A DNA stretch of 23,516 nt from a virus. Taxonomy: Duplodnaviria; Heunggongvirae; Uroviricota; Caudoviricetes. Below, one piece after another: positions 1,466 to 23,516 of the stretch; position 1 is the stretch's first letter, and each line of letters opens with the position of its first letter. A model generated the notes under the pieces. The model worked only from the letters and a program-made list of their open reading frames with translations, was not told the DNA's origin and did not search any database. The translations under genes and the position numbers were made by a program. The stretch is taken from the IMG/VR virus record IMGVR_UViG_2585427772_000010. One strand, 5' to 3'.

Positions 1466-1753
1466 ATGAGGGTACCATATATGGACGCTGAAAATTATGT
1501 GATTCAGTATCCGCTGGACGCGGTTCATGTGGATAAATTTGCTGATTTATTAGGGAAGCCAAAGACAGCCGTCAGTGAAATGGTGAAGGCAAATAAATTA
1601 CCAATTATTGAATTACGTGATCCTTGCAAACCGAAGGCTCGTGCCGGTGAAAAATGGGTTTTCATTCCTGAGTTTAATCGCGCTGTACGTGAGGCGTTTT
1701 ATAACCGACCGGTTGAACAGCGTGATGCATGGCTTTTGTGGATGGGGTTGTGA
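1466..1753 (+). CDS. cox: Cox-like excisionase/early transcription regulator
   Basis: 95-aa ORF first on the early rightward operon, size and position of P2 Cox; an internal start at 1481 is possible. Confidence 0.65.
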   Translation: MRVPYMDAENYVIQYPLDAVHVDKFADLLGKPKTAVSEMVKANKLPIIELRDPCKPKARAGEKWVFIPEFNRAVREAFYNRPVEQRDAWLLWMGL

Positions 1754-1755
1754 TT

Positions 1756-1926
1756 ATGAATGAGCCGCGTTGTATTGCTCAGTTATTGCGTAACGAAAGC
1801 CCCAGGGTGATTGACTTCACCATCACCCACGGGAAGGGACGCAAGGGAATCATTATCCGCACCAAAAAACAGAGTCCGTTAAAGAAGGCTCTGACCTTTC
1901 TGAAAAGCCGGAGGGTCTGGAAATGA
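1756..1926 (+). CDS. Small early protein (P2 orf78 position)
   Basis: ATG at 1756 directly after the cox stop (TGATTATG), in frame with ORF 1729-1926; ends overlapping the B start. Confidence 0.4.
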   Translation: MNEPRCIAQLLRNESPRVIDFTITHGKGRKGIIIRTKKQSPLKKALTFLKSRRVWK

Positions 1927-2423
1927 CAGTGATGACGCTTAATCTCGTTGAAAAACAGCCAGCAGCTATGCGCCGGATAATTGGTAAGCATCTGGCCGTC
2001 CCTCGCTGGCAGGATACATGTGATTATTATAATCAGATGATGGAACGCGAACGGCTAACAGTTTGCTTTCATGCGCAGTTAAAACAACGTCATGCAACGA
2101 TGCGTTTTGAAGAAATGAACGACGTCGAACGTGAACGGCTGGTTTGTGCAATTGATGAATTGCGTGGGGCATTCTCAAAACGCCGTCAGGTTGGCGCAAG
2201 TGAGTATGCATATATTAGTTTTTTAACAGTCAGTCAGCGTCGTACTTTATTTATGCATGCCGGATTGACTGAAAAAGAATTCAACCAGCCATACTGGCGA
2301 ATTAATGAAGAGTCATGTTACTGGCGTGATGCTTTATTCCGTGCATTACGTGAATTATTCAGCCTGTTTGAGTATGCACCGACAATTCTGACGTCGGTAA
2401 AACCAGAGCAATATCTGCATTAA
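1923..2423 (+). CDS. B: Replication protein B (helicase-loading accessory)
   Basis: 166-aa ORF, same length and position as P2 B; start overlaps the upstream stop (ATGA). Confidence 0.8.
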   Translation: MTVMTLNLVEKQPAAMRRIIGKHLAVPRWQDTCDYYNQMMERERLTVCFHAQLKQRHATMRFEEMNDVERERLVCAIDELRGAFSKRRQVGASEYAYISFLTVSQRRTLFMHAGLTEKEFNQPYWRINEESCYWRDALFRALRELFSLFEYAPTILTSVKPEQYLH

Positions 2424-2486
2424 ATAATTAACCAGAGTTTTAAACGCACTTAATCGTGCGGGGCTTCTTTTTGCCTGGAGAAAGTC

Positions 2487-2711
2487 ATGCATACAGTTTC
2501 TGAAAATCAGTGCGGTAAATACGCATTACTGCTGCAACAGGCCAGAACCGAAGCACAGGCTGACGCTGCGACGCGCTTTTCTTCTCATCTTGACGCCATG
2601 ATTCGCCATATCACAAAGGCGGAGTTATCCCGCGTGGAGATAGTCGAGCTACTCAGTCAGGAGTCGGAAAAATTTCACAATATCGGATTGTCTCGCGGGG
2701 AGGTGCTTTGA
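2487..2711 (+). CDS. Hypothetical early protein (P2 orf80 position)
   Basis: 74-aa ORF in the early operon between B and A; stop overlaps next start. Confidence 0.55.
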
Positions 2712-3010
2712 TGTCCTGTTCTCATTCAGTTGTATTACTGAATAACGCCTTAAAAATCGCCGTTATGAAAAATGGCGATTTGTCTCTTATCCAACTTTGT
2801 CTTGATAAAGAAAAACGCGACATCACTGAATCTGTTATCGCGATTTATCAGAGCGAATTAAACCTCCTGTCTGATGTGATCAATTTACTTGTGAAACGCG
2901 CTGTATTCCACAAGCAAATTTCCTCAGTGGATGAACTGACAAAATTAACGACAGAACTCGCCAGTTATTGCGCTGATGTATCCAGGAAACTTAACGATAA
3001 AAGGAGCTGA
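2708..3010 (+). CDS. Hypothetical early protein (P2 orf81 position)
   Basis: 100-aa ORF, translationally coupled to neighbours. Confidence 0.55.
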
Positions 3011-3012
3011 TA

Positions 3013-3237
3013 ATGCCGGACAACGTAGATTTTATTCAGGAACAACAGGCTGAATTACTGGAGCGCCAGATTAACGCGGCAAGGGTAAAACATTGCGGTG
3101 TTTCTTCGCTGGTTTGCGAAGAGTGTGACGCTCCAATACCTGCTGCCCGTCGTGCGGCTTATCCGTCAGCCACGCGTTGTGTTTCCTGTCAGTCAGTCTT
3201 TGAAGCAAAAAACAAACATTACCGGAGAACGGCATGA
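3013..3237 (+). CDS. TraR/DksA-type C4 zinc-finger protein (P2 orf82 position)
   Basis: 74-aa ORF with CxxC...CxxC (CEECDAPIP...RCVSCQ) characteristic of the DksA/TraR zinc-finger family. Confidence 0.65.
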   Translation: MPDNVDFIQEQQAELLERQINAARVKHCGVSSLVCEECDAPIPAARRAAYPSATRCVSCQSVFEAKNKHYRRTA

Positions 3238-3509
3238 GTATTCGTATTGAAATTGGCGAACGTTATGTCGTTACCAGTGACAGCTTTCAGTTTATTCTCC
3301 ACGAGAAAAAGAGAGCGGAAAGCGGTAAAAACGCCGGTCAGGAATGGCTGGCGGTGGTTGGTTATTACCCGAAATTAAGCCAGCTCGTTTCCGGCCTGAT
3401 GCATCACGATATTCTGACCGGAAGCGCAAAGTCTTTTGCTGATTTAAACGGGCAGGTTGAGCAACTCAGCAAGCGTTGTTCAGAGGCTTTTGGCTCATAT
3501 GGCCGTTAA
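3234..3509 (+). CDS. Hypothetical early protein (P2 orf83 position)
   Basis: 91-aa ORF, start overlaps orf82 stop; 3' end overlaps the A start by 11 nt. Confidence 0.55.
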   Translation: MSIRIEIGERYVVTSDSFQFILHEKKRAESGKNAGQEWLAVVGYYPKLSQLVSGLMHHDILTGSAKSFADLNGQVEQLSKRCSEAFGSYGR

Positions 3510-5778
3510 AGCCTCCGGGCGTTTTGTCCCTCCGTCAGCATTTGCCGCAGGCACCGGTAAGACGTTTACCGGTGCTTATGCATGGAACGCGCCACGCGAG
3601 GCCGTCGGGCGCGAAAGACCCCTTACACGTGACGAGATGCGTCAGGTGCAAGGTGTTTTATCCACGATTAACCGCCTGCCTTACTTTTTGCGTTCGCTGT
3701 TTACTTCACGCTATGACTACATCCGGCGCAATAAAAGCCCGGTGCACGGGTTTTATTTCCTCACATCCACTTTTCAGCGTCGTTTATGGCCGCGCATTGA
3801 GCGCGTGAATCAGCGCCATGAAATGAACACCGACGCGTCGTTACTGTTTCTGGCAGAGCGTGACCACTATGCGCGCCTGCCGGGAATGAATGACAAGGAG
3901 CTGAAAAAATTTGCCGCCCGTATCTCATCGCAGCTTTTCATGATGTATGAGGAACTCTGCGATGCCTGGGTGGATGCCCATGGCGAAAAAGAATCGCTGT
4001 TTACGGATGAGGCGCAGGCTCACCTGTATGGTCATGTTGCTGGCGCTGCACGTGCTTTCAATATTTCCCCGCTCTACTGGAAAAAATACCGTAAAGGACA
4101 GATGACCACGAGGCAGGCATATTCTGCCATTGCCCGCCTGTTTAACGATGAGTGGTGGACTCATCAGCTTAAAGGCCAGCGTATGCGCTGGCATGAGGCG
4201 TTACTGATTGCTGTCGGGGAGGTCAATAAAGACCGTTCTCCTTATGCCAGTAAACATGCCATTCGTGATGTGCGTGCACGCCGCCAGGCAAATCTGGAAT
4301 TTCTTAAATCGTGTGACCTTGAAAACAGGGAAACCGGCGAGCGCATCGACCTTATCAGTAAGGTGATGGGCAGTATTTCTAATCCTGAAATTCGCCGGAT
4401 GGAGCTGATGAACACCATTGCCGGTATTGAGCGTTACGCCGCAGCAGAGGGTGATGTGGGGATGTTTATCACGCTGACCGCGCCGTCAAAGTATCACCCG
4501 ACACGTCAGGTCGGAAAAGGCGAAAGTAAAACCGTCCAGCTAAATCACGGCTGGAACGATGAGGCATTTAATCCAAAGGATGCGCAGCGTTATCTCTGCC
4601 ATATCTGGAGCCTGATGCGCACGGCATTCAAGGATAATGATTTACAGGTCTACGGTTTGCGTGTCGTCGAGCCACACCACGACGGAACGCCGCACTGGCA
4701 TATGATGCTTTTTTGTAATCCACGCCAGCGTAACCAGATTATTGAAATCATGCGTCGCTATGCGCTCAAAGAGGATGGCGACGAAAGAGGAGCCGCGCGA
4801 AACCGTTTTCAGGCAAAACACCTTAACCGGGGCGGTGCTGCGGGATATATCGCGAAATACATCTCAAAAAACATCGACGGCTATGCACTGGATGGTCAGC
4901 TCGATAATGATACCGGTAGGCCGCTGAAAGACACAGCTGCGGCTGTTACCGCATGGGCGTCAACGTGGCGCATTCCGCAATTTAAAACGGTTGGTCTGCC
5001 GACAATGGGGGCTTACCGTGAACTACGCAAATTGCCTCGCGGCGTCAGCATTGCTGATGAGTTTGACGAGCGCGTCGAGGCTGCACGCGCCGCTGCAGAC
5101 AGTGGTGATTTTGCGTTGTATATCAGCGCGCAGGGCGGGGCAAATGTCCCGCGCGATTGTCAGACTGTCAGGGTCGCCCGTAGCCCGTCGGATGACGTTA
5201 ACGAGTACGAGGAAGAAGTCGAGAGAGTGGTCGGCATTTACGCGCCGCATCTCGGCGCGCGTCATATTCATATCACCAGAACGACGGACTGGCGCATTGT
5301 TCCGAAAGTGCCGGTCGTTGAGCCTTTGACTTTAAAAAGCGGCATCGCCGCGCCTCGGAGTCCTGTCAATAACTGTGGAAAGCTCACCGGTGGTGATACT
5401 TCGTTACCGGCTCCCACACCTTCTGAGCACGCCGCAGCAGTGCTTAATCTGGTTGATGACGGTGTTATTGAATGGAATGACCAGGAGGTCGTGAGGGCGC
5501 TCAGGGGCGCATTAAAACGAGGTCTGAGAAGACCAAACCGTCAGCAAAGAAACGGAAGCCCGTTAAAACAGCATGAAATGGCACCATCGGCCAGACTGAC
5601 CCGGTCAGAACGAATGCAAATTACCCGTATCCGCGTTGACCTTGCTCAGAACGGTATCAGGCCGCAGCGATGGGAGCTTGAGGCGCTGGCGCGTGGAGCA
5701 ATTGTAAATTACGACGGGAAAAAATTCACGTATCCAGTCGCTGATGAGTGGCGGGGATTCTCAGCAGTAATGGAGTGA
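3499..5778 (+). CDS. A: Replication initiation protein A (rolling-circle HUH endonuclease)
   Basis: Long ORF; start placed at the internal ATG 3499 (MAVKASGRF...) by comparison with P2 A as I recall it; contains an HUH-like motif (PHWHMML) and a tyrosine pair (GYIAKYISK) expected for rolling-circle initiators. Confidence 0.9.
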   Translation: MAVKASGRFVPPSAFAAGTGKTFTGAYAWNAPREAVGRERPLTRDEMRQVQGVLSTINRLPYFLRSLFTSRYDYIRRNKSPVHGFYFLTSTFQRRLWPRIERVNQRHEMNTDASLLFLAERDHYARLPGMNDKELKKFAARISSQLFMMYEELCDAWVDAHGEKESLFTDEAQAHLYGHVAGAARAFNISPLYWKKYRKGQMTTRQAYSAIARLFNDEWWTHQLKGQRMRWHEALLIAVGEVNKDRSPYASKHAIRDVRARRQANLEFLKSCDLENRETGERIDLISKVMGSISNPEIRRMELMNTIAGIERYAAAEGDVGMFITLTAPSKYHPTRQVGKGESKTVQLNHGWNDEAFNPKDAQRYLCHIWSLMRTAFKDNDLQVYGLRVVEPHHDGTPHWHMMLFCNPRQRNQIIEIMRRYALKEDGDERGAARNRFQAKHLNRGGAAGYIAKYISKNIDGYALDGQLDNDTGRPLKDTAAAVTAWASTWRIPQFKTVGLPTMGAYRELRKLPRGVSIADEFDERVEAARAAADSGDFALYISAQGGANVPRDCQTVRVARSPSDDVNEYEEEVERVVGIYAPHLGARHIHITRTTDWRIVPKVPVVEPLTLKSGIAAPRSPVNNCGKLTGGDTSLPAPTPSEHAAAVLNLVDDGVIEWNDQEVVRALRGALKRGLRRPNRQQRNGSPLKQHEMAPSARLTRSERMQITRIRVDLAQNGIRPQRWELEALARGAIVNYDGKKFTYPVADEWRGFSAVME

Positions 5779-6107
5779 ACGTCGCCAGTTGCGAAAATTA
5801 TTTACAGGGGGCAGCGTTAAGCATCTAAAGATCTTGTTCTATGATTAGAATGTTTCCTCGTTGCACTCTCGTATAGTTATTTAATGGGAAGATGTACTCT
5901 ATATGTTGTGTTTTGGTGATAAATGAAGCCAAAGGAAGGAGATTTTGCTTGATTGATGGGCGCTCTTTGCTATACACCTTGTATTGAGAAGGAGAAGTAA
6001 TCAAGGATTAAGCTGGCTTTTGTCAAAAATCTGAAAAGCTTTTTTGACTGAATACGATAGCGAGTTGTACTATTTGCGCCCTCAAAAGTAACCGGCGGCT
6101 GGGTAAA

Positions 6108-6482
6108 ATGGGGAAGCAAGGCAAAGGCAAAGGCAACAAAAATCAGGTTAAGGTTACGTGGGCTCAGGCGTGGCGGGATGTAATGATAAGAGCCATGTCT
6201 AATGGTCAGTTGATACCTATTACCATCAGTATTATTTTAATGATTGCTGCATGGAGGTTACCAAAAACAGACTTGTCCAATTTAGCCTTCTCTATTGTTG
6301 ATGGCTTTAAGGAGCATTCCTTGGTTGGTTGGGCTATCTCGGTAATAGTGGGTTTGGCTTGGTCTGCACATGCGCGAATCATGAGGCGCTGTTTTAGTTC
6401 CGAGGCACAGAGAATCGGTAACGAGAAAACAAAGTATCAACAAAGACAGACCACTCAAGCCTTGGGTACAAGTGATAAATAG
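6108..6482 (+). CDS. Small membrane protein with two predicted TM helices (cargo gene 1)
   Basis: 124-aa ORF; lysine-rich N-terminus, hydrophobic segments LIPITISIILMIAAW and LVGWAISVIVGLAWSA; AT-rich; start uncertain (alternative ATGs at 6183 and 6195). Confidence 0.5.
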   Translation: MGKQGKGKGNKNQVKVTWAQAWRDVMIRAMSNGQLIPITISIILMIAAWRLPKTDLSNLAFSIVDGFKEHSLVGWAISVIVGLAWSAHARIMRRCFSSEAQRIGNEKTKYQQRQTTQALGTSDK

Positions 6483-6502
6483 TTGTTTATTTAGGAGTTA
6501 TT

Positions 6503-7060
6503 ATGCTGACAGTGCTGTTTTATGTGCTGTTGGGTTTAGGCGCAGCACACTTCATTTACGAGCGAATCATTTTGCCGTCCATCCGACTTCATTATAGAAA
6601 CCAATTGTTTGCGCTTCGTGATGTCGCTAGGAGGAAAATCATTGATGGAGGTTCCGATACTTCCATGCAAGCGGCAACACTTGTGCATGACTCATTGAAT
6701 AACGCTATCAATAGATTGCATTTACTCACGTTGCCAAACAAATTTCGTGCTCAAAAGCGTATGGCAGAAAACCATGCAATAAGGCAGAAAATTCGGCGTG
6801 AGATAGATGTTTTCAAACGCTGTGATGATAGAGAAGTTGTTGATGTACTGTTTAAATCCGGTCGGATACTTGAAAATGTACTGTTATTCAATAGCTTAAT
6901 GTTATTGCTTTACATGTTTCCATTTGTCCTTGCTGTATGGTTCTGTGTTAGGGTCATAAAGACAGCAAGTAGTTTAGTACAGTGGGTCAAAGGAAGAGAT
7001 TTAGAGGAAGCTATAATGCTGCTTCCTGATACTCAGGTTGAAAAGGTTGTATACGCATAA
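6503..7060 (+). CDS. Membrane protein with N- and C-terminal hydrophobic helices (cargo gene 2)
   Basis: 185-aa ORF; AGGAG 6 nt upstream of the ATG; 20-nt gap from gene 1 (operon); hydrophobic N-terminus (LTVLFYVLLGLGAAHFIY) and C-proximal helix (LLFNSLMLLLYMFPFVLAVWFCV); followed by a terminator. Confidence 0.65.
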   Translation: MLTVLFYVLLGLGAAHFIYERIILPSIRLHYRNQLFALRDVARRKIIDGGSDTSMQAATLVHDSLNNAINRLHLLTLPNKFRAQKRMAENHAIRQKIRREIDVFKRCDDREVVDVLFKSGRILENVLLFNSLMLLLYMFPFVLAVWFCVRVIKTASSLVQWVKGRDLEEAIMLLPDTQVEKVVYA

Positions 7061-7089
7061 AAATCACCCCTTAGGGGGTGATTTTTTTA
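7061..7089 (+). terminator. Rho-independent terminator
   Basis: ATCACCCC-TTAG-GGGGTGAT hairpin followed by a 7-T run immediately after the 6503-7060 stop. Confidence 0.7.
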
Positions 7090-7299
7090 CATGACTTTTG
7101 ATTAGCTGACATTGTAAATCCGCATGTATCAGATGCATTGTTTTGCATGTGGAAATGGGTGTTTTCACTGCCAGCTATCGCTACATGTAGCAAAAACACG
7201 GGCTTAATAAGAAATCATTCTGCCATAAGGCATAACTTCCCCGCGTGCTCAGGTATTGACGTCATAGATATGGATCTTTTTTAATCAAGGTATGGTATT

Positions 7300-8247
7300 A
7301 TGAAGATATTTATTAGTTGGTCAGGTCAGGACAGCCTGGAGATAGCAAAAGTATTACGGGATTGGATACCGAATGTTATTCAAGTAGCTGAGCCGTACGT
7401 ATCAGCGGAAGATATTGATAAAGGCACTCGCTGGGCGACTGATATATCAAAGGAACTTGATGACTCTTCTTATGGGATTATTTGCCTTACAAAAAATAAT
7501 ATTAATGCACCGTGGATAAATTTTGAGGCGGGGGCTTTAGGTAAAAAGGTTGATAAGAGCCGGGTTAGTCCTTTCTTGTTTAAAATTAAACCATCTGAGA
7601 TAACAGGCCCAATATTACAATTCCAGTATACTCGTTCGGATGATAAGAACGATATTTTGAAGTTGATGTTGTCAATAAATAATCAAGCAGGATTTTTGAC
7701 TGAAGAACGCTTAACTAAAGCTTTCGAGCAATGGTGGCCAAGTTTAGAGCGTGAGTTAGATAACATTCAAGATATTAACCCTGTAGATAAAGATTCCACT
7801 AAAAAAACAAAAGGTGATTCGACTTCTGAGATACAAAATCTTTCCAAAATTGTTGAAAGTTTGCTGGATATTAGCCGAACAAATCACCAATTATTGCGTG
7901 ATCCAGCATCATTATTGCCAGAAGAATATGTTAGCAAAATAATAAACAGGGAAGGGCGTAAAGAAACTGTTTTAAAAATTGTAGCTTCTGATTTATTATC
8001 CATGCATCATTCACTAATTCGTGTAAAAAGAAGATTTATTCGTCGTGGTATTGATGAAACATCTAGGAGCGAGTTAATTGAATCATTAAATAAAATGATA
8101 ATGGATTGTTCTAGAGTAATCGCTCACTTAGATAATTATTGTGGGGCTTCATCAAACAATATGTTCAATAGTGCGCTTAGATTGCGGACCAGAAATTTAA
8201 TTGACATGATGGATGAGGAGGATGCAGAACGGGATGAAATGGAATAA
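7300..8247 (+). CDS. TIR-like domain protein with uncharacterised helical C-terminal half (cargo gene 3)
   Basis: 315-aa ORF; N-terminal ~130 aa carries the bacterial TIR-like pattern (KIFISWSGQD ... GIICLTKNN ... PWINFEAG) with a glutamate at the position of the catalytic Glu of TIR NADases; C-terminal ~170 aa is charged/helical and unrecognised. The domain call is from motif reading only. Confidence 0.6.
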   Translation: MKIFISWSGQDSLEIAKVLRDWIPNVIQVAEPYVSAEDIDKGTRWATDISKELDDSSYGIICLTKNNINAPWINFEAGALGKKVDKSRVSPFLFKIKPSEITGPILQFQYTRSDDKNDILKLMLSINNQAGFLTEERLTKAFEQWWPSLERELDNIQDINPVDKDSTKKTKGDSTSEIQNLSKIVESLLDISRTNHQLLRDPASLLPEEYVSKIINREGRKETVLKIVASDLLSMHHSLIRVKRRFIRRGIDETSRSELIESLNKMIMDCSRVIAHLDNYCGASSNNMFNSALRLRTRNLIDMMDEEDAERDEME

Positions 8248-8791
8248 TCAATTTTGACTAATCATAAATAATTTTGCATATATAAACTTATAATGCCGCA
8301 GCCGCTATTTTTCAGCGGCTGTATATCGCTTATAATGGGTATGTTATTTTTATTTTGATAAAATCATTAAAATTGTCGATGTTATATGAATGCACATGTA
8401 TTATTAATGTTAGAAGATTATGCCTGCTTACGGCTATTGTGCTGAATTCAACTATGAACGCATCAGTATTAAAATCGTTCCATGAAATGTTCTTCGTCTA
8501 CAGCAGATGATGGGCAACGAAAAAATGACGCTGAGTGAGTTGGTCGGGGAGAATTGTTAGAGGTATTTATGGAGTGGTTTAATAATATCGGTCAATCCTG
8601 AGTTGCAGCATCACATAGACGATAGGGAATCTCTCCAGTCGTTCTGGAATGGCAGCGTTGAACAACAAGCACAGCGAGGCGTTAGATGCCCATCAGATTG
8701 ACACAGAGGGTTTATGAATCGCTGGGATTTACTTAGTTTGAAAAATAATATATTTATATGTTTTTGTATTGTGTTTGTTAAGGAGTTTGGA

Positions 8792-8998
8792 TTGAAAAGA
8801 AAACTGATTTGTGTTATGGCTTTTTGGGGGGCGTTGCTGGCTGGTTGTAATGAGAGTAATAAAAAAGAAGTTGAGGGTTGTATTGAAAGAGGTGTCCAAT
8901 ATTTTATAGAGATTGGTTCTTACCCTAAATTAAGTGATGGGCGTGATGCTGTAAAAGTTGCTACTGAACGTTGTAATAGAACAATAACGGCTTTCTGA
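8792..8998 (+). CDS. Small predicted lipoprotein (cargo gene 4)
   Basis: Track ORF 8714-8998; preferred start is the in-frame TTG at 8792, preceded by AAGGAG (8780-8785), giving a classical lipoprotein signal peptide (KRK, hydrophobic core, lipobox LLAG-C); about 49-aa mature protein with three further Cys. Confidence 0.5.
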   Translation: MKRKLICVMAFWGALLAGCNESNKKEVEGCIERGVQYFIEIGSYPKLSDGRDAVKVATERCNRTITAF

Positions 8999-9000
8999 TA

Positions 9001-9918
9001 ATGGATTATACGAGCTATATAATAGGACAGCTTCAGGTTGAGGATATTATTGATGCAATTAAAGGCGTTAATAATACTAATGTCATAAAAGATTATGTGC
9101 TGCCTGTAGTATTACCAATTATATCTTCTGTGCTGAGTTACTTTATTGCAACTAGGTTGTTTTATCGGCAGGAGGACCTTAAAGCACAAAGAAGAAAGGT
9201 AAGCGTTGTAAATAAATGTATTTATGACTACTTTTCTGCAATGACAACGTTGTTGCAAATTAAAGGGAATTATTATGGTGGGGTAAGTATAAGTGAAAAT
9301 CCTATCGAGAGGGCTTTAGCTTTTCCTGTTGTGGTTTTTTCTGGTGCTCCTCTATCATCAGATTTAAGTGAGTTGGCCTGTATATTGAGTCAAAAGGGAG
9401 TAGGGAATAATAGAGAGCCAGCAAAGACTACTAACTGGGGGGATGCTTTTGCTGTTAGTGATATAGCAAGAAGGTTTAACAGCCTATTGGCTGCATTAAA
9501 TGTTAGGAATGATTTTGATGACACCTATAGAGGAATGATTATTGAATCAACAGGTTCACCTTTGCCTACGATGCGTTTTAAAAATGATGATATTGTTAAT
9601 GCTATAGGTAGTAATAAGGCAGCTTATTACATTGATATTACTGAGCAAATAATGATTATGATAGATGTTTTGTTGCTTGATATTAATCTGTTGCTCAAAG
9701 AGTTGCCATTGTATGCTGAATCGCTGTTTGACAAAAGAGTAATGCAAGAAGATTCAGGGATTCTTAAATTCAATGATTTGCACGAACGTTTTCCTCTACT
9801 TATGAAACCTGTAACGCCACCTTCGATTAAACTCATGTCTGATTATTTGGGGTACAGTGAAGATGAGATCTTACGACGCTATCCATACCCGTTCTTTAAT
9901 ATGCATGATTGTGAATGA
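9001..9918 (+). CDS. Uncharacterised 305-aa protein with one N-proximal TM helix (cargo gene 5)
   Basis: ATG 2 nt after the lipoprotein stop (coupled); hydrophobic segment VLPVVLPIISSVLSYFIATRLF; AT-rich; no family recognised. Confidence 0.7.
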   Translation: MDYTSYIIGQLQVEDIIDAIKGVNNTNVIKDYVLPVVLPIISSVLSYFIATRLFYRQEDLKAQRRKVSVVNKCIYDYFSAMTTLLQIKGNYYGGVSISENPIERALAFPVVVFSGAPLSSDLSELACILSQKGVGNNREPAKTTNWGDAFAVSDIARRFNSLLAALNVRNDFDDTYRGMIIESTGSPLPTMRFKNDDIVNAIGSNKAAYYIDITEQIMIMIDVLLLDINLLLKELPLYAESLFDKRVMQEDSGILKFNDLHERFPLLMKPVTPPSIKLMSDYLGYSEDEILRRYPYPFFNMHDCE

Positions 9919-10021
9919 ATGTGCATATGTCAGAAGCCGTTTTTATTGTCAGTTATCGTCAGTGCTGGCGCGCTCTTGGAGTGTTCATGCAACTGCATTA
10001 AAACCGCCCCACGAAGCGGGC

Positions 10022-10040
10022 GGGCGAGGCGGGGAAAGCA
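10022..10040. other. cos site (19-nt cohesive-end sequence of P2-type phages)
   Basis: Exact GGCGAGGCGGGGAAAGCAC, which I recall as the P2/P4 cohesive end, in the expected position between the old/tin locus and Q. Confidence 0.6.
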
Positions 10041-10171
10041 CTGCGCGCTGGCGGGGGTGATGATTGTCTGAGCGCGTCGTGATGGCGTTTAGATTGTGCG
10101 CCGGGGCGTTGGTGTGTCTGCGGGGTGTTTTGTACAGTGGCGAGCGTGTGAGGGCGTGATGACGGGGGTGT

Positions 10172-10193
10172 AAAAAAGCCGCCCGCAGGCGGC
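10172..10193 (-). terminator. Rho-independent terminator downstream of Q
   Basis: GCCGCC-CGCA-GGCGGC hairpin with an A-run on the plus strand (a T-run on the minus strand) immediately 3' of the Q stop. Confidence 0.5.
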
Positions 10194-10198
10194 GATGT

Positions 10199-11233
10199 TC
10201 AGCCGTTGTCAGTGTCCAGTGAGTAGTTTTTAAAGCGGATGACCTCCTGACCGAGCCAGCCGTTTATTTCCCGAATCCTGTCCTGTAACGGGATAAGTTC
10301 ATTGCGGACAAAGACCTTTGCCACTTTCTCAATATCGCCCAGCGACCCGACGTTTTCCGGCTTGCCACCCATCAACTGAAAGGGGATGCGGTGCGCGTCC
10401 AGCAGGTCAGCGGCGCTGGCTTTTTTGATATTAAAAAAATCGTCCTTCGTGGCCACTTCACTGAGCGGGATAATTTTAATGCCGTCGGCTTTTCCCTGTG
10501 GGGCATAGAGAAACAGGTTTTTAAAGTTATTGCGGCCTTTCGACTTCACCATGTTTTCGCGGAGCATTTCGATATCGTTGCGATCCTGCACGGCATCAGT
10601 GACGTACATGATGTATCCGGCATGTGCGCCGTTTTCGTAATACTTGCGGCGGAACAGCGTGGCCGACTCATTCAGCCAGGCAGAGTTAAGGGCGCTGAGA
10701 TATTCCGGCAGACCGTACAGCTCCTGATTAATATCCGGCTCCAGCAGGTGAAACACGGAGCCGGGCGCGAAAGGTGTCGGCTCGTTGAAGGACGGCACCC
10801 ACCAGTAAACATCCTCCTCCACGCCACGGCGGGGATATTTTGCCGGGGAGGGTTCCAGTCTGATGACCTTACCGGTGGTGCTGTAACGCTTTTCCAGAAA
10901 CGCATTACCGAATACCAGAAAATCCAGCACAAAGCGGCTGAAATCCTGCTGAGAAAGCCACGGGTGTGGGATAAACGTTGAGGCCAGAATGTTACGTTTG
11001 ACGTAAATCGGTGAGCTGTGATGCACGGCAGCACGCAGGCTTTTTGCCAGACCGGTAAAGCTGACTGGTGGCTCATACCATCTGCCGTTACTGATGCACT
11101 CGACGTAATCCAGAATGTCACGGCGGTCGAGTACCGGCACCGGCTCACCAAAGGTGAATGCCTCCATTTTCGGGGCGCTGGCGGTCATTTTTTTTGCCGC
11201 AGGTTGCGGTGTTTTCCCTTTTTTCTTGCTCAT
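10199..11233 (-). CDS. Q: Portal protein Q
   Basis: 344-aa ORF, same length and position as P2 Q; start ATG overlaps the P stop (TGATG). Confidence 0.9.
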   Translation of the reverse strand: MSKKKGKTPQPAAKKMTASAPKMEAFTFGEPVPVLDRRDILDYVECISNGRWYEPPVSFTGLAKSLRAAVHHSSPIYVKRNILASTFIPHPWLSQQDFSRFVLDFLVFGNAFLEKRYSTTGKVIRLEPSPAKYPRRGVEEDVYWWVPSFNEPTPFAPGSVFHLLEPDINQELYGLPEYLSALNSAWLNESATLFRRKYYENGAHAGYIMYVTDAVQDRNDIEMLRENMVKSKGRNNFKNLFLYAPQGKADGIKIIPLSEVATKDDFFNIKKASAADLLDAHRIPFQLMGGKPENVGSLGDIEKVAKVFVRNELIPLQDRIREINGWLGQEVIRFKNYSLDTDNG

Positions 11234-17489: not shown

Positions 17490-19535
17490 ATGAGCATAAA
17501 ATTCAGAACCGTTATCACCACTGCCGGTGCAGCAAAGCTGGCAGCGGCAACCGCGCCGGGAGGGCGGAAGGTCAACATTACCACGATGGCCGTCGGGGAT
17601 GGCGGTGGTAAATTGCCTGTCCCGGATGCCGGACAGACCGGGCTTATCCATGAAGTCTGGCGACATGCGCTGAACAAAATCAGCCAGGACAAACGAAACA
17701 GTAATTATATTATCGCCGAGCTGGTTATTCCGCCGGAGGTGGGCGGTTTCTGGATGCGTGAGCTTGGCCTGTACGATGATGCGGGAACATTAATTGCCGT
17801 GGCGAACATGGCCGAAAGTTATAAGCCAGCTCTTGCCGAAGGCTCAGGGCGTTCGCAGACCTGTCGCATGGTCATCATCGTCAGCAGTGTGGCCTCAGTG
17901 GAGCTGACCATTGACACCACAACGGTGATGGCGACTCAGGATTACGTTGATGACAAAATTGCAGAGCATGAACAGTCACGACGTCACCAGGACGCCTCGC
18001 TGACCGCAAAAGGTTTTACTCAGTTAAGCAATGCGACCAACAGCACGTCTGAAACACTGGCCGCAACGCCGAAAGCGGTTAAGGCCGCATATGACCTTGC
18101 TAACGGGAAATATACCGCACAGGACGCTACCACAGCGCGAAAAGGTCTTGTCCAGCTAAGTAGTGCGACCAACAGCATATCTGAAACGCTCGCCGCAACA
18201 CCAAAAGCCGTTAAGACGGTAATGGATGAAACGAACAAGAAAGCGCCATTAAACAGCCCTGCACTGACCGGAACGCCAACGACGCCAACTGCGCGACAGG
18301 GAACGAATAATACTCAGATCGCAAACACGGCTTTCGTTATGGCCGCGATTGCCGCCCTTGTAGACTCGTCGCCTGACGCACTGAATACGCTGAACGAGCT
18401 GGCGGCGGCGCTGGGCAATGACCCGAATTTTGCTACCACCATGACTAATGCGCTTGCGGGTAAGCAACCGAAAGATGCCACTTTGACGGCGCTGGCGGGG
18501 CTTGCTACTGCGGCAGACAGGTTTCCGTATTTTACGGGGAATGATGTTGCCAGCCTGGCGACCCTGACAAAAGTCGGGCGGGATATTCTGGCTAAATCGA
18601 CCGTTGCCGCTGTTATCGAATATCTCGGTTTACAGGAAACGGTAAACCGAGCCGGGAACGCCGTGCAAAAAAATGGCGATACTTTGTCCGGCGGGCTTAC
18701 TTTTGAAAACGACTCAATCCTTGCCTGGATTCGAAATACTGACTGGGCGAAGATTGGATTTAAAAATGATGCCGATGGTGACACTGATTCATATATGTGG
18801 TTTGAAACAGGTGACAACGGCAATGAATATTTCAAATGGAGAAGTCGCCAGAGCACCACAACAAAAGACCTGATGAATCTTAAATGGGATGCTCTGTATG
18901 TTCTTGTTAAAGCCCTTTTCAGCAGTGAAGTAAAAATATCTACAGTCAATGCACTGAGGATATTTAATTCATCTTTTGGGGCTATTTTTCGCCGTTCTGA
19001 AGAAAACCTGTATATCATTCCTACACGAGAAAATGAGGGTGAAAATGGAGATATTGGGCCATTAAGGCCATTCGGCATCAACTTAAGAACAGGAGTTGTG
19101 TCTGTTGGTAATGGTGCCAGGATTGATGGCGGGCTGGCACTTGGCACGAATAACGCGTTGGGTGGGAACTCTATTGTTCTTGGTGATAACGACACCGGAT
19201 TTAAACAAAATGGCGATGGTAATCTGGATGTTTATGCTAATAACGTCCATGTTATGCGCTTTGTTTCCGGAAGCATTCAAAGTAATAAGACCATAAATAT
19301 TACGGGGCGTGTTAATCCCTCGGATTACGGTAACTTTGATTCCCGCTATGTGAGAGATATCAGACTTGGCACACGTGTTGTCCAGACCATGCAGAAAGGG
19401 GTGATGTATGAGAAAGCAGGGCACGTAATTACCGGGCTTGGTATTGTCGGTGAAGTCGATGGTGATGACCCCGCAGTATTCAGGCCAATACAAAAATACA
19501 TCAATGGCACATGGTATAACGTCGCACAGGTGTAA
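17490..19535 (+). CDS. H: Tail fibre protein H
   Basis: 681-aa ORF with conserved N-terminal baseplate-attachment region, internal fibre repeats (SNATNSTSETLAATPKAVKA / SSATNSISETLAATPKAVKT) and a distinct C-terminal receptor-binding portion. Confidence 0.9.
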   Translation: MSIKFRTVITTAGAAKLAAATAPGGRKVNITTMAVGDGGGKLPVPDAGQTGLIHEVWRHALNKISQDKRNSNYIIAELVIPPEVGGFWMRELGLYDDAGTLIAVANMAESYKPALAEGSGRSQTCRMVIIVSSVASVELTIDTTTVMATQDYVDDKIAEHEQSRRHQDASLTAKGFTQLSNATNSTSETLAATPKAVKAAYDLANGKYTAQDATTARKGLVQLSSATNSISETLAATPKAVKTVMDETNKKAPLNSPALTGTPTTPTARQGTNNTQIANTAFVMAAIAALVDSSPDALNTLNELAAALGNDPNFATTMTNALAGKQPKDATLTALAGLATAADRFPYFTGNDVASLATLTKVGRDILAKSTVAAVIEYLGLQETVNRAGNAVQKNGDTLSGGLTFENDSILAWIRNTDWAKIGFKNDADGDTDSYMWFETGDNGNEYFKWRSRQSTTTKDLMNLKWDALYVLVKALFSSEVKISTVNALRIFNSSFGAIFRRSEENLYIIPTRENEGENGDIGPLRPFGINLRTGVVSVGNGARIDGGLALGTNNALGGNSIVLGDNDTGFKQNGDGNLDVYANNVHVMRFVSGSIQSNKTINITGRVNPSDYGNFDSRYVRDIRLGTRVVQTMQKGVMYEKAGHVITGLGIVGEVDGDDPAVFRPIQKYINGTWYNVAQV

Positions 19536-19538
19536 TTT

Positions 19539-20066
19539 ATGCAGCATTTAAAAAATATTACTGCGGGTAATCCAAAAACTGTTGCCCAATATCAACTGAC
19601 AAAAAATTTTGATGTTATCTGGTTATGGTCCGAAGAGGGAAAAAACTGGTATGAGGAAGTAAGTAATTTTCAGGAAGACACGATAAAGATTGTTTACGAC
19701 GAGAATAATATAATTGTCGGCATCACCAGAGATGCTTCAACGCTTAACCCTGAAGGTTTCAGCGTTGTCGAGGTTCCTGATATTACCTCCAACCGACGTG
19801 CTGATGACTCAGGTAAATGGATGTTTAAGGATGGTGCCGTGATTAAGCGGATTTATACGGCAGATGAACAGGAGCAACAGGCAGAATCACAAAAAGCAGC
19901 TTTACTTTCCGAAGCGGAAAGCGTTATTCAGCCACTGGAACGCGCTGTCAGGCTGAATATGGCGACGGATGAGGAATGCGCACGACTGGAGTCATGGGAA
20001 CGCTACAGCGTTCTGATCAGCCGTGTGGATCCTGCAAATCCTGAATGGCCGGAAATGCCGCAATAA
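19539..20066 (+). CDS. G: Tail fibre assembly chaperone G
   Basis: 175-aa ORF immediately after H, same length and position as P2 G. Confidence 0.85.
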
Positions 20067-20287
20067 GTTGTATAAGCTCTGGTGTGAGATTACATATCTA
20101 TGGCACAGAGTAAAGCCTAATCTGACAGGCCGCTCTGTGTCTGGAGTAGATTTTAGTAAAGCATTATTTTATTAGTGCAAATTCTAATCAATACATTTTA
20201 TGTATATGATATCCTACGGACTTTAATGACTTGGTTTAGGCTAACCAGATAACACTGAAGGAATATTTTTGATAATTAAGGTGCGGT

Positions 20288-20881
20288 ATGTTTACTAAGC
20301 GACGATTAAAAAATATTAACTGGGAGGCAAGTTCAGTGATTCTTGCTATGGTTCTCTTTGTTGGAAATATATTTTATACAAATCATCGTGATGATATAAG
20401 CATGGAGGCTGAGAGGGACAGTATCAGAACAATGTTTGCATATGAAATCGCTAATAACCATCGCGCTCTCACTTTTCTTGATAAAACGAGACATATTGGC
20501 TTTGACGAAAATTCGGAGCATTTTGTTGGCGAGCCTTTTGCCATTAATGTCAAATCATTAGGGGGACCTCGCTTACAGATTGCATTAAACCAGACTGATA
20601 AAGTGTTTAAATCCTACTTCGGCGAATTAAGTAAGCTTGATAAAGAGGATGTTACTCTTCTTATGGACTATTACCATGAGCAAAGCATCCTGCTGGAGCG
20701 TGTAAAATCTACGTTACAGAAGATGAAAAGTGGTAATGATATTAAAGTTGATATTGATGGTTGCTTATTAGAAGAACACTTCATGAATGAGCTTAATCTT
20801 TCTAATATTTTGCTTAAACGCTATAGCTATTTATTATCACAACACGCTAAGGAACATAAAACAAAAGATTTACATAATTGA
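20288..20881 (+). CDS. AT-rich membrane-anchored protein at the Z/fun position
   Basis: 197-aa ORF; AAGGTG 5 nt upstream of the ATG; single N-terminal TM helix (SSVILAMVLFVGNIFY); flanked by AT-rich intergenic DNA between G and the FI remnant. Confidence 0.65.
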   Translation: MFTKRRLKNINWEASSVILAMVLFVGNIFYTNHRDDISMEAERDSIRTMFAYEIANNHRALTFLDKTRHIGFDENSEHFVGEPFAINVKSLGGPRLQIALNQTDKVFKSYFGELSKLDKEDVTLLMDYYHEQSILLERVKSTLQKMKSGNDIKVDIDGCLLEEHFMNELNLSNILLKRYSYLLSQHAKEHKTKDLHN

Positions 20882-21090
20882 TAATCTGCTAATGGTTATT
20901 CATGGGGTAACTATGTTTTATATGTAATCCAGCCCAGATGAATTATTGATTCTGGATAATAACCGCAGAGCGGCATATACCCTGACAGGCAAATGTCCGC
21001 TTCTTGCTCAAAGCAGACTGTCAGATTTGATAACTTTTGGGCTATGTAAACTGTCAGTCGGAAAATGAGTGTGTACAAATCAGGACAGGC

Positions 21091-21127
21091 GGGGGGAATT
21101 GCCCCCTTTTTTTTTTTTTTTTTTTTT
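21091..21127 (+). terminator. Strong rho-independent terminator with a 21-T tract
   Basis: GGGGG-AATTG-CCCCC hairpin (21092-21106) followed by 21 consecutive T (21107-21127). Confidence 0.7.
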
Positions 21128-21212
21128 CATCCACTGACCAGCCAGGTCAAATAGCGTCTCATGTACTACCCAACGGAAAATAGTTGCACCCATTAACCAC
21201 GGAGTTAAACGG
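21128..21212 (+). promoter_or_regulatory. Candidate late promoter upstream of FI (P_F)
   Basis: Dyad TGACCAGCCAGGTCA about 65-75 bp upstream of the FI ATG; GGAG 9 nt before the ATG; P2 has a late promoter here. Confidence 0.3.
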
Positions 21213-21326
21213 ATGAGTGACTATCATCACGGCGTGCAGGTGCTGGAGATTAACGACGGCACCCGCGTCATTTCCACCGTATCCACAGCCATTGTCGGCA
21301 TGGTCTGCACGGCTAGCCTCCCGTAA
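21213..21326 (+). pseudogene. FI: Tail sheath FI, 5' stub (37 codons then stop)
   Basis: [35 protein letters not shown] matches the start of the P2 sheath protein as I recall it, then leaves frame and hits TAA at 21324-21326. Confidence 0.7.
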
Positions 21327-22077
21327 CAGGCTGGAAGCCAGTGTCGCTCCGTCACTGGCCGGAATTAAAATCCCGCACATCGACCAGTCGCAGGAGTCCG
21401 ATGCGAAATTCCTGACCCGTCTTGCTGAACGCAACGGCGGTGAGGTGTCGGTAAAAATGGGAAAACTGCTGTTTCTCAAAGCGGGGCAGGGGGGGACGGT
21501 CAGCGGTAAAAAAATCCCGCAGATTACCATCACCCGCAGCGACGGCGACCGTCATCATTTTGCGATTGCTGACCGTGGAGCCTACACAGGCGTAACGGCA
21601 AAGTGGTTACACACCAAAGACCCGAAGCCGCAAAAGCAGAAGGTAAAACTGAAACGCAAAAAGAAAGAGAAACACCTGCGCGCACTGGAGCACCCGAAAG
21701 CGAAACCGGTCACGCAGAAGAAAGAGCCAAAAGTACCGGAAGCGCGCGAAGGTGAATACATGGCCGGTGAGGCTGACAACGTTTTTGCCCTGACCACGGT
21801 ATATGCCACGAAAGCACAGGCCATGCGCGCCGCTCAGGCGAAGTGGGATAAACTGCAACGGGGTGTTGCGGAGTTCTCCATCAGCCTGGCTACTGGTCGG
21901 GCAGATATTTACACGGAAACGCCGGTCAGAGTGTCAGGCTTTAAGCGCGTCATAGACGAGCAGGACTGGACAATCACTAAGGTGACACATTTTCTGAATA
22001 ATAGCGGCTTCACGACGTCCCTGGAGCTTGAGGTCAGGCTTTCTGATGTGGAGTACGAAACAGAAGATGATGAGTGA
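21318..22077 (+). pseudogene. D: Tail protein D, 3' fragment (about 250 codons) fused to the FI stub
   Basis: Frame of track ORF 21217-22077 encodes a lysine-rich linker and C-terminal region ending ...LELEVRLSDVEYETEDDE, directly upstream of ogr as in P2; no native start or N-terminal part. Confidence 0.75.
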
Positions 22078-22158
22078 TGTAATTTATTTATCTGTTTGTT
22101 TTATAAGGATAAATTAACTAAAATGGCACCATCAACAAAACCGGAAGAGGTGCTCGCG

Positions 22159-22377
22159 ATGTTTCATTGTCCTTTATGCCAGCATGCCGCACATGCGCGT
22201 ACAAGCCGCTATATCACTGACACGACAAAAGAGCGTTATCACCAGTGTCAGAACGTGAATTGCAGCGCCACGTTCATCACTTATGAGTCGGTACAGCGAT
22301 ACATCGTGAAGCCGGGAGAAGTCCATGCCGTAAGGCCGCACCCGTTGCCGTCAGGACAGCAAATTATGTGGATGTAA
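22159..22377 (+). CDS. ogr: Late gene activator Ogr (zinc-finger)
   Basis: Start at internal ATG 22159 (MFHCPLCQHAAHARTSRY...); 72 aa with CxxC...CxxxxC zinc-binding pattern; last phage gene as in P2. Confidence 0.85.
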   Translation: MFHCPLCQHAAHARTSRYITDTTKERYHQCQNVNCSATFITYESVQRYIVKPGEVHAVRPHPLPSGQQIMWM

Positions 22378-22387
22378 TCACAAAAAT

Positions 22388-22415
22388 AGCCCCTCAGTTG
22401 AGGGGCTTTATTTAT
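22388..22415 (+). terminator. Terminator-like hairpin after ogr
   Basis: AGCCCCTC-AGTT-GAGGGGCT followed by TTTATTTAT. Confidence 0.55.
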
Positions 22416-22505
22416 GGTCGATGTGGACGCTATGTGGACAGCGTTTGATATAAATCCATTTATATCATCAGGTTAGGTGCTTTTTTGTGACACCATCCCT
22501 GTCTT

Positions 22506-22532
22506 CCCCCACATGATGTGGGGGTTTTTTTT
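22506..22532 (+). terminator. Rho-independent terminator hairpin in the phage-host junction region
   Basis: CCCCCACA-TGA-TGTGGGGG followed by 8 T. Confidence 0.5.
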
Positions 22533-22613
22533 ATCCTCAATTTGCCTGCTGCTTAATGCATTGCAGATGATTTGCTTCCGTTATACTACCGTCAGTTGAT
22601 AGCGGGAGTATTT

Positions 22614-23516
22614 ATGAATCAATCTTATGGACGGCTGGTCAGTCGGGCGGCGATTGCTGCGACGGCGATGGCTTCGCTGCTATTGCTGATTAAAATTTTT
22701 GCATGGTGGTATACCGGGTCGGTGAGTATTCTCGCCGCGCTGGTGGATTCGCTGGTGGATATCGGCGCGTCGTTGACGAATTTACTGGTGGTGCGATATT
22801 CCCTGCAACCTGCCGACGATAATCACTCGTTTGGTCACGGTAAAGCTGAGTCCCTCGCGGCGCTGGCGCAAAGTATGTTTATCTCCGGTTCGGCACTATT
22901 CCTGTTTTTGACGGGTATTCAACATCTGGTATCTCCAACACCGATGACAGATCCAGGCGTCGGGGTTATCGTGACAATTGTGGCGCTAATTTGTACGATT
23001 ATCCTTGTCTCGTTTCAGCGTTGGGTGGTGCGCCGGACGCAAAGCCAGGCGGTGCGGGCTGATATGCTACATTACCAGTCTGATGTTATGATGAACGGCG
23101 CAATTCTGCTGGCGCTGGGGTTGTCCTGGTACGGCTGGCATCGCGCCGATGCTCTGTTTGCATTGGGGATCGGCATCTATATTTTATATAGCGCGTTACG
23201 CATGGGATATGAGGCGGTACAGTCATTACTGGATCGCGCATTGCCTGATGAGGAACGGCAAGAAATTATTGATATCGTGACTTCCTGGCCGGGTGTTAGC
23301 GGCGCTCACGATCTTCGCACGCGGCAGTCAGGGCCGACCCGCTTTATTCAGATTCATTTGGAAATGGAAGACTCTCTGCCTTTGGTTCAGGCACATATGG
23401 TGGCGGATCAGGTAGAGCAGGCTATTTTACGGCGTTTTCCGGGATCGGATGTGATTATCCATCAGGACCCCTGTTCCGTCGTACCCAGGGAGGGTAAACG
23501 GTCTATGCTTTCATAA
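22614..23516 (+). CDS. fieF: Cation-diffusion-facilitator iron/zinc efflux transporter FieF (YiiP), host gene
   Basis: Start at internal ATG 22614 ([29 protein letters not shown]...); 300 aa; sequence as I recall it for E. coli FieF; higher GC, multi-TM transporter plus C-terminal cytoplasmic domain. Confidence 0.85.

Follow-up and report, generated by a model that had tools for sequence, protein, structure and literature searches.

The open reading frame at positions 20288–20881 of a defective P2-like prophage is a self-contained single-gene accessory cassette ('moron') placed in the Z/fun (G-FI) slot, which is the second variable hotspot in phages of the P2 type. We consider it a genuine gene under purifying selection and not a chance ORF, because dN/dS is 0.19 against the 96%-identical copy of phage PhiR44_1 and 0.10–0.15 between homologues at 60–70% identity (pairs with estimable dS), and because full-length homologues of ~197 aa occur in several genera of Enterobacterales. 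By sequence comparison, its 197-aa product is assigned to a very small orphan family, PHROG 3829. It is predicted to be a bitopic inner-membrane protein with a short basic cytoplasmic tail, one transmembrane (TM) helix and a periplasmic four-helix bundle of ~165 residues, and the evidence supports a stand-alone accessory protein whose site of action would be the inner membrane or the periplasm and which would bind a partner, not catalyse a reaction. Our tentative proposal for its function is a non-enzymatic, envelope-acting, narrow-spectrum phage-exclusion factor, similar to those of superinfection exclusion.

The host prophage

The window (the whole stretch of DNA that was analysed, 23,516 nucleotides, IMG/VR record IMGVR_UViG_2585427772_000010) is a P2-like prophage. 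In the alignment with P2 it follows the order int, early region, gpA, a variable region (5781–10022), cos, Q and late genes, and the aligned late-gene block runs from K to H and G. Two segments of P2 are absent: nucleotides 1729–7043, with most of P, then O, N, M, L, X, Y and the start of K (junction at ~11800), and nucleotides 17757–23190, with FI after ~35 codons, FII, E, T, U and the start of D (junction at ~21314–21317). The prophage is defective and cannot make particles any more. It has lost ~10.7 kb of structural genes, yet both accessory hotspots are intact, and lysA and lysB are retained. The second deletion creates an FI'-'D junction, where the D remnant is in frame in an ORF at 21217–22077 and another frame, that of ORF 21213–21326, contains the FI remnant.

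Hotspot 1, between gpA and cos/Q, holds the three-gene TIR + 2TM + 1TM defence system described for phage AC1 (6108–8247, plus strand), with a TIR protein 99.7% identical to that of P2_AC1. Two ORFs of unknown function (8714–8998 and 9001–9918) lie between this system and Q. In the last part of the window (22467–23516) the prophage ends in the chromosomal neighbourhood of fieF, which starts near 22572. A Salmonella homologue of the 197-aa protein and its type II restriction-modification neighbour (positions 6001–10404 of that locus, L006) are found directly upstream of fieF-pfkA, and it seems that mobile DNA has inserted upstream of fieF repeatedly in both genera.

The cassette in the Z/fun slot

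The preliminary description of this DNA had reported an AT-rich ORF with a single N-terminal TM helix and a charged soluble domain, situated between G and the FI remnant at the locus where P2 carries Z/fun, which is reported to interfere with phage T5. The points on the ORF and its location were borne out. Alignment with P2 (AF063097) placed the ORF between gpG (19539–20066) on one side and the first ~35 FI codons (from 21214) on the other. Its GC content is 0.35 and its GC3 0.32, compared with 0.48 for the whole window and 0.45–0.55 for the neighbours G, D and ogr. The sole hydrophobic stretch of the protein is residues 13–31 (Kyte-Doolittle mean 1.54), and the other 166 residues are charged (22 K+R and 27 D+E) and slightly acidic.

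Homology to P2 ends at window position 20139 (P2 15346) and resumes at 20996 (P2 17433), a side that corresponds to the pF region and the FI start in the whole-window alignment; homology to the backbone shared by P2 and P2-EC58 ends at the same position and restarts at 20987–20996. The DNA in between showed no similarity to P2 or P2-EC58 DNA and, apart from the 197-aa gene, has no ORF of any size. The cassette therefore qualifies as cargo of P2 hotspot 2 (Z/fun slot), that is, a variable insert with conserved flanks on both sides. The coordinates of all features are collected in Table 1.

Table 1. Features of the cassette, its flanks and the TIR system of hotspot 1 (positions in the window).
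Feature	Position	Strand	Remarks
2TM-TIR	6108–6482	+	PADLOC match
1TM-TIR	6503–7060	+	PADLOC match
TIR-TM	7300–8247	+	PADLOC match
Left backbone flank downstream of gpG	20039–20139	+	corresponds to the 'left inverted repeat' in the Z-region record of P2-EC58
Cargo cassette	20140–20995	+	~855 bp, GC ~0.32–0.38; stands in for the 2.1-kb fun(Z) cassette of P2
Shine-Dalgarno sequence AAGGTG	20278–20283	+	spaced 4 nt from the ATG; seen in the sequence itself
197-aa ORF	20288–20881	+	ATG to TGA, stop codon included; orphan family PHROG 3829
Predicted TM helix, codons 13–31	20324–20380	+	EASSVILAMVLFVGNIFYT; hydropathy, charge bias
Helical domain, codons 32–197	20381–20878	+	modelled as an up-down four-helix bundle, predicted periplasmic
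Right backbone flank	20996–21090	+	'right inverted repeat' of the P2-EC58 record; P2/P2-EC58 homology restarts
Backbone intrinsic terminator upstream of the pF region	21091–21127	+	GGGGGGAATTGCCCCC then 21 T; terminator scan

The left flank is contiguous with the P2 homology and is 95% identical to positions 1–103 of AJ512683, the Z-region record of P2-EC58, from which the 'left' and 'right inverted repeat' are taken as feature labels. Between the two sides of the cassette we detected an imperfect inverted repeat of 19 nt (84%), in which 20119–20137 pairs with 21009–21027, while the other matches were short and at chance level. A stable conserved hairpin follows G (~20101–20141; RNA fold z = -3.3).

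The backbone terminator is the first canonical one downstream of gpG as well as of the ORF. Its hairpin is kept in P2, P2-EC58 and PhiR44_1, and the long T run is peculiar to this window: P2-EC58 and PhiR44_1 have GGCGGGCGAATTGCCCGCC followed by TTTTCTTTAT, where the window has GGGGGGAATTGCCCCC followed by 21 uninterrupted T. The run looks like a homopolymer expansion, or is possibly a sequencing or assembly artefact. A small minus-strand ORF (20911–21078) overlaps the right flank and corresponds in part to a 38-aa 'FIG00643520 hypothetical protein' of PhiR44_1; as P2 has the same backbone DNA here, the ORF is unlikely to be a gene. Finally, the C-terminal part of the tail fibre H and the assembly protein G (18900–19540 and 19539–20066) showed patchy identity to P2 (77–87%), with GC falling to ~0.40–0.45 in this divergent stretch, which indicates that a swapped receptor-binding module sits directly upstream of the cargo cassette.

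Relation to P2 Fun

Whether the ORF encodes a Fun homologue or different cargo had been left open, and alignment with P2 Fun(Z) decided for different cargo, the flanking backbone DNA being all that the two have in common. The best BLASTP hit between the two proteins had E = 2.2 over 32 residues and consisted of short spurious segments. P2 Fun(Z) has 528 aa, against 197 aa here, and is encoded on the opposite strand relative to the ORF. A Fun homologue was ruled out on these grounds together with the unrelated cassette DNA. The idea of a diverged Fun(Z) homologue that blocks T5 by the same mechanism has the same genomic slot in its favour and nothing else; being refuted at the sequence level by the same four observations, it has practically no chance of being correct. 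That the ORF might interfere with T5-like phages is a suggestion taken from genome position alone.

Predicted structure and topology of the protein

The N-terminal tail carries 1–8 K/R and 0–2 D/E residues in the 28 family members that retain it, and the 15 residues after the TM helix are neutral to acidic in most members. Given this family-wide charge bias (positive-inside rule) and the hydropathy profile, we infer an N-in/C-out topology, with the bundle predicted in the periplasm.

The TM region is invariant in the close family at N11, W12, E13, A14, S16, V17, A20, M21 and F24 (motif NWEAxSVxxAMxLF). Since this conservation far exceeds the needs of a passive anchor, it suggests that the TM helix may engage in a specific interaction. 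The loop 67–91 is also conserved in the close family (GFDxN...GEPFAINLKSLGGxRL), and family-wide invariant residues are found in helix 1 (R47, Y52, E53 and N57) and in the third long helix (L117, M126, Y128 and Y129).

AlphaFold2 gave a poor model with close homologues alone (pLDDT 63.5), and a Foldseek search of the PDB with that model returned nothing significant. After adding seven distant relatives, pLDDT rose to 83.9 and pTM was 0.72, with all five models at 81–84. In this model the TM segment runs on into the first bundle helix as one unbroken helix (12–66), followed by helices 92–100 and 105–116 (together ~92–116), 119–148 and 151–178. The model shows no enzymatic fold, and its structural matches are generic helix bundles.

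Family size and distribution

The same cassette was found in the same slot, at 96–98% nucleotide identity, in 13 P2-like phage records that represent 8 distinct phages, and the plaque-forming isolates that bear it include AC1, SIDE7, PhiR44_1, D8 and 12W. It is also present in 201 out of 5426 complete E. coli genomes (~3.7%), always in the chromosome. A word-indexed search of 5.8 billion proteins recovered 38 relatives, nearly all of ~197 aa and with 53–97% identity, from Escherichia, Salmonella, Pantoea, Kosakonia, Pluralibacter and Enterobacter. An exhaustive HMMER search of 1.84 billion cluster representatives gave only 18 matches, 7 of which were near-full-length (165–218 aa, 28–40% identity), and only 3 loci with the gene were found in a scan of one genome per species.

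The only significant PHROGs match was phrog_3829, annotated as 'unknown function', and this was true of all 29 aligned members. None of these 29 members, nor the 197-aa protein itself, had a significant Pfam match, and no PHROGs or Pfam family annotated as exclusion or immunity was matched by the 29 members. The 197-aa protein also had no match among the PADLOC v2 models at E <= 10 (P0049 and P0053, two distant members, had none at E <= 0.01), no NCBIfam match, and nothing under E = 0.1 when PDB sequences were searched with a profile. Public databases already list the identical protein as 'hypothetical protein' or, in some NCBI records, as 'lysogenic conversion protein', a label that appears to derive from position only. 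In the literature, including a peptide look-up in the DefensePredictor supplements, we found nothing on phrog_3829 or on 'lysogenic conversion protein'.

Genomic contexts of the relatives

Nothing beyond the coding sequence of the gene is common to its different contexts, and the gene thus moves as a one-gene unit. In Pantoea and Kosakonia the relatives come after the alpha primase at the end of P4-like satellites, and the Salmonella relative is found where a prophage ends, next to genes for a type II methyltransferase and a restriction enzyme. A copy on an IncFII plasmid is annotated as truncated (161 aa), yet tblastn aligns residues 2–197. Among the other relatives, a distant one is found on a contig with resolvase and ParB, and another, on a plasmid-like metagenomic contig that bears ParA, is transcribed divergently from Lamassu LmuA/LmuB. 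The Proteus relative is a chromosomal singleton near ahpCF, and no mobile-element or defence genes were recognised among its neighbours in the part of the neighbourhood that was examined.

Two of the slots in which the gene occurs are known as defence hotspots. The Z/fun slot, hotspot #2 of Vassallo et al. 2022 (PMC9519451), has experimental support as such from fun and three further systems that were validated there, and the hotspot within the tail genes was reported to hold 16% of the defence systems of P2 (PMC13586616). The P4 primase-att slot has also been named as a defence hotspot (PMC13586616), and the literature independently recognises both slots (PMC9519451; PMC13586616; bioRxiv 10.1101/2024.10.15.618418). 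The Z-region ORFs of P2-like phages were described by Nilsson et al. 2004, who put forward the idea of site-specific recombination. P2 hotspots hold non-defence cargo too, such as partition systems and cytolethal distending toxin.

The context of the distant homologue P0049 (218 aa, 32% identity) bears on a different function. Its gene follows, after 38 nt and on the same strand, that of a 290-aa coiled-coil TIR protein (locus L012, 5090–6657), which corresponds to the ThsB-like PADLOC candidate PDC-S66; an integrase adjoins, and a single terminator follows the second gene. PADLOC lists PDC-S66 as a single-gene candidate, but the pair at this locus may instead form a two-gene unit. This arrangement, in which the only terminator comes after the pair, would suit an abortive-infection or membrane effector: a phage cue would trigger oligomerisation of the resting inner-membrane protein through its TM helix, the membrane would be depolarised or permeabilised, and the cell would die before phage release. 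The trigger in some lineages would be a signal from the adjacent TIR protein. For TIR systems, that of AC1 in this prophage among them, TM proteins have been proposed as effectors, and the unusual conservation of the TM helix is in line with such a role. However, the gene of the close family is always alone, without a partner. The TIR system of the window is ~12 kb away from the ORF and occurs in only two of the 13 gene-bearing phage records, both from AC1, and thus is absent from 11 records and from 7 out of the 8 distinct phages. The 197-aa protein has no homology to the 1TM component of that system (hhalign probability 0.1), a predicted periplasmic bundle could not bind a cytoplasmic nucleotide signal, and PDC-S66 itself is treated by PADLOC as complete with one gene. 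We consider an effector of this kind unlikely. A fourth component of the AC1 TIR-TM system was also rejected, given the lack of 1TM homology and of co-occurrence across phages.

Expression and published lysogen tests

In the 148-nt upstream part of the cassette, promoter-like sites were no commoner than in shuffled sequence, and the best of them would cut off the Shine-Dalgarno sequence. The ORF has the orientation of the late V-G operon, and the terminator scan found no canonical terminator between G and the ORF; for these two reasons it could be mainly a late gene. This opens the possibility of a late lytic-cycle accessory, made by read-through of V-W-J-I-H-G and with a periplasmic role in lysis timing (antiholin-/RI-like) or secondary adsorption. 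The orientation, which is that of H and G and unlike that of fun and of P2-EC58 ORF1, speaks for it, as does the fact that transcription from G would meet its first terminator only in the backbone beyond the ORF, and a signal anchor with a periplasmic helical domain recalls antiholins and i-spanins. On the other side, homologues are found where phage lytic machinery is absent (P4-like satellites, plasmids and chromosomal islets), this prophage has kept an intact copy although it cannot make particles, and a stable conserved hairpin follows G. No lipobox ORF that could serve as a spanin partner is embedded in the gene or adjoins it, and the prophage has kept its own lysA and lysB. A late accessory role is, in our opinion, improbable.

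Published lysogens also provide information on the phenotype. Rousset et al. made E. coli C lysogens of four P2-like phages, including the gene-bearing AC1 and SIDE7 (copies 94% and 97.5% identical to the window protein, respectively), and challenged them with a panel of eight phages that did not include T5 (lambda, T4, P1, 186, CLB_P2, LF82_P8, AL505_P2 and T7). Among the lysogens only AC1 protected, and the cloned TIR system by itself reproduced the phenotype (Rousset et al.). Since SIDE7 gave no protection and that of AC1 is explained by the TIR system, the gene gave no visible protection against this panel, and any activity would thus be narrow, or absent in lysogens.

The lack of an anti-phage phenotype in these lysogens would also agree with a non-defence lysogenic-conversion factor in the envelope. 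It could, for example, be an orphan immunity protein that counters a bacteriocin, a tailocin or a contact-dependent toxin acting in the periplasm, or it could modulate a host envelope process and so raise lysogen fitness. The predicted periplasmic location with a non-enzymatic binding fold, the presence of non-defence cargo in P2 hotspots and the Proteus singleton all fit with such a factor. Nevertheless, no toxin gene adjoins the gene in any context examined, most contexts are defence hotspots or neighbours of defence systems, and the protein has no similarity to known Pfam immunity families. We regard a non-defence factor as a rather unlikely explanation, behind that of a membrane effector.

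Proposed function

An anti-phage role is our leading idea because the relatives recur in defence loci, and a block of genome delivery would be its most economical version because the protein is predicted to face the periplasm. In the phage-exclusion mechanism that we propose, the N-terminal tail would remain in the cytoplasm, the TM helix would anchor the protein in the inner membrane, and the bundle would be exposed to the periplasm. The bundle, the conserved TM helix or both might then bind a component of the incoming phage or, alternatively, a host inner-membrane protein required for genome delivery, so that infection would be stopped after adsorption and before the DNA gets into the cytoplasm.

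We counted in favour of exclusion the exact replacement of fun(Z), the relatives in defence settings, the purifying selection, the preservation of an intact gene in a decayed prophage, the N-terminal charge bias, the non-enzymatic bundle model and the conservation of the TM helix. Against it we counted the lysogen results, the lack of a family match, the generic structural matches, the lack of a convincing promoter, the late-gene orientation and the TIR adjacency of P0049, which points to an effector role. A more specific version, which is accordingly held with more doubt, would be a previously unrecognised family of single-gene exclusion proteins that use a four-helix bundle of chemoreceptor type and a TM helix of specific sequence to act on the periplasmic side of the inner membrane. 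This family might have been recruited independently into secondary defence hotspots of a helper phage (the P2 G-FI slot) and of its satellites (the P4-like primase-att slot), with a range narrow enough to be missed by standard panels such as lambda, T4, T7 and P1.

If exclusion is true, an envelope-level, non-abortive mechanism would join the catalogue of P2/P4 hotspot cargo, which now consists mostly of cytoplasmic nuclease, TIR and toxin-antitoxin type systems, and the 197-aa protein would offer a compact tool for probing the passage of phage genomes across the inner membrane. Its presence in ~3.7% of complete E. coli genomes means that it could shape strain-level phage susceptibility of relevance to phage therapy. 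If exclusion is wrong, the annotation is still clarified, as the protein is no Fun homologue and its 'lysogenic conversion protein' label is apparently positional. The sequence was already known from databases and phage genomes, and the hotspot has been known since 2004 and was revisited in 2022–2026; a small membrane protein of unknown function in the Z/fun hotspot is in itself ordinary and would not surprise a specialist.

Comparison with known systems

The cassette shares with other Z/fun-hotspot cargo of P2 the identical slot between gpG and pF/FI, with the same conserved flanks and inverted-repeat region, and likewise is AT-rich foreign DNA of one-gene size that the phage does not need. 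In sequence it is unrelated to Fun, P2-EC58 ORF1 and the PADLOC models, including the PD-T4, PD-lambda and PD-T7 systems. Moreover, it encodes a predicted membrane protein and is co-oriented with the late genes, whereas fun and P2-EC58 ORF1 are antisense and have their own promoters.

The likeness to TIR-TM systems (AC1 TIR + 2TM + 1TM; Thoeris-like) consists of the P0049 gene behind a TIR gene and of the system present in hotspot 1. In contrast to the components of such systems, the ORF product has neither 1TM nor 2TM homology and no TIR linkage in the window or in close relatives, and its predicted periplasmic orientation is incompatible with the sensing of cytoplasmic signals. The overall predicted topology is similar to that of i-spanins, but the model is a four-helix bundle and not an extended coiled coil; an i-spanin of the Rz/LysB type was rejected, as there was no lipobox ORF within or beside the gene and no PHROG spanin match.

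In the model, a four-helix bundle continuous with the TM helix reproduces the layout of the periplasmic sensor domains of chemoreceptors, and the structural counterparts are the 4HB periplasmic ligand-binding domains (LBDs) of chemoreceptors and sensor kinases (Tar, PcaY and PilJ LBDs). The protein does not have the combination of a Pfam match, two flanking TM helices and a cytoplasmic transducer that marks 4HB_MCP/TarH members.

Superinfection-exclusion proteins of phages that act at the inner membrane include Imm and Sp of T4, SieA of P22, gp15 of HK97 and the lactococcal Sie2009. Unlike these, the ORF product has a predicted four-helix-bundle ectodomain of ~165 aa and falls outside the annotated PHROG and Pfam exclusion families. 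It resembles them in being a small, prophage-borne and apparently non-enzymatic protein, encoded by a lone gene, and it is predicted to be anchored in the cytoplasmic membrane with its bulk outside the cytoplasm.
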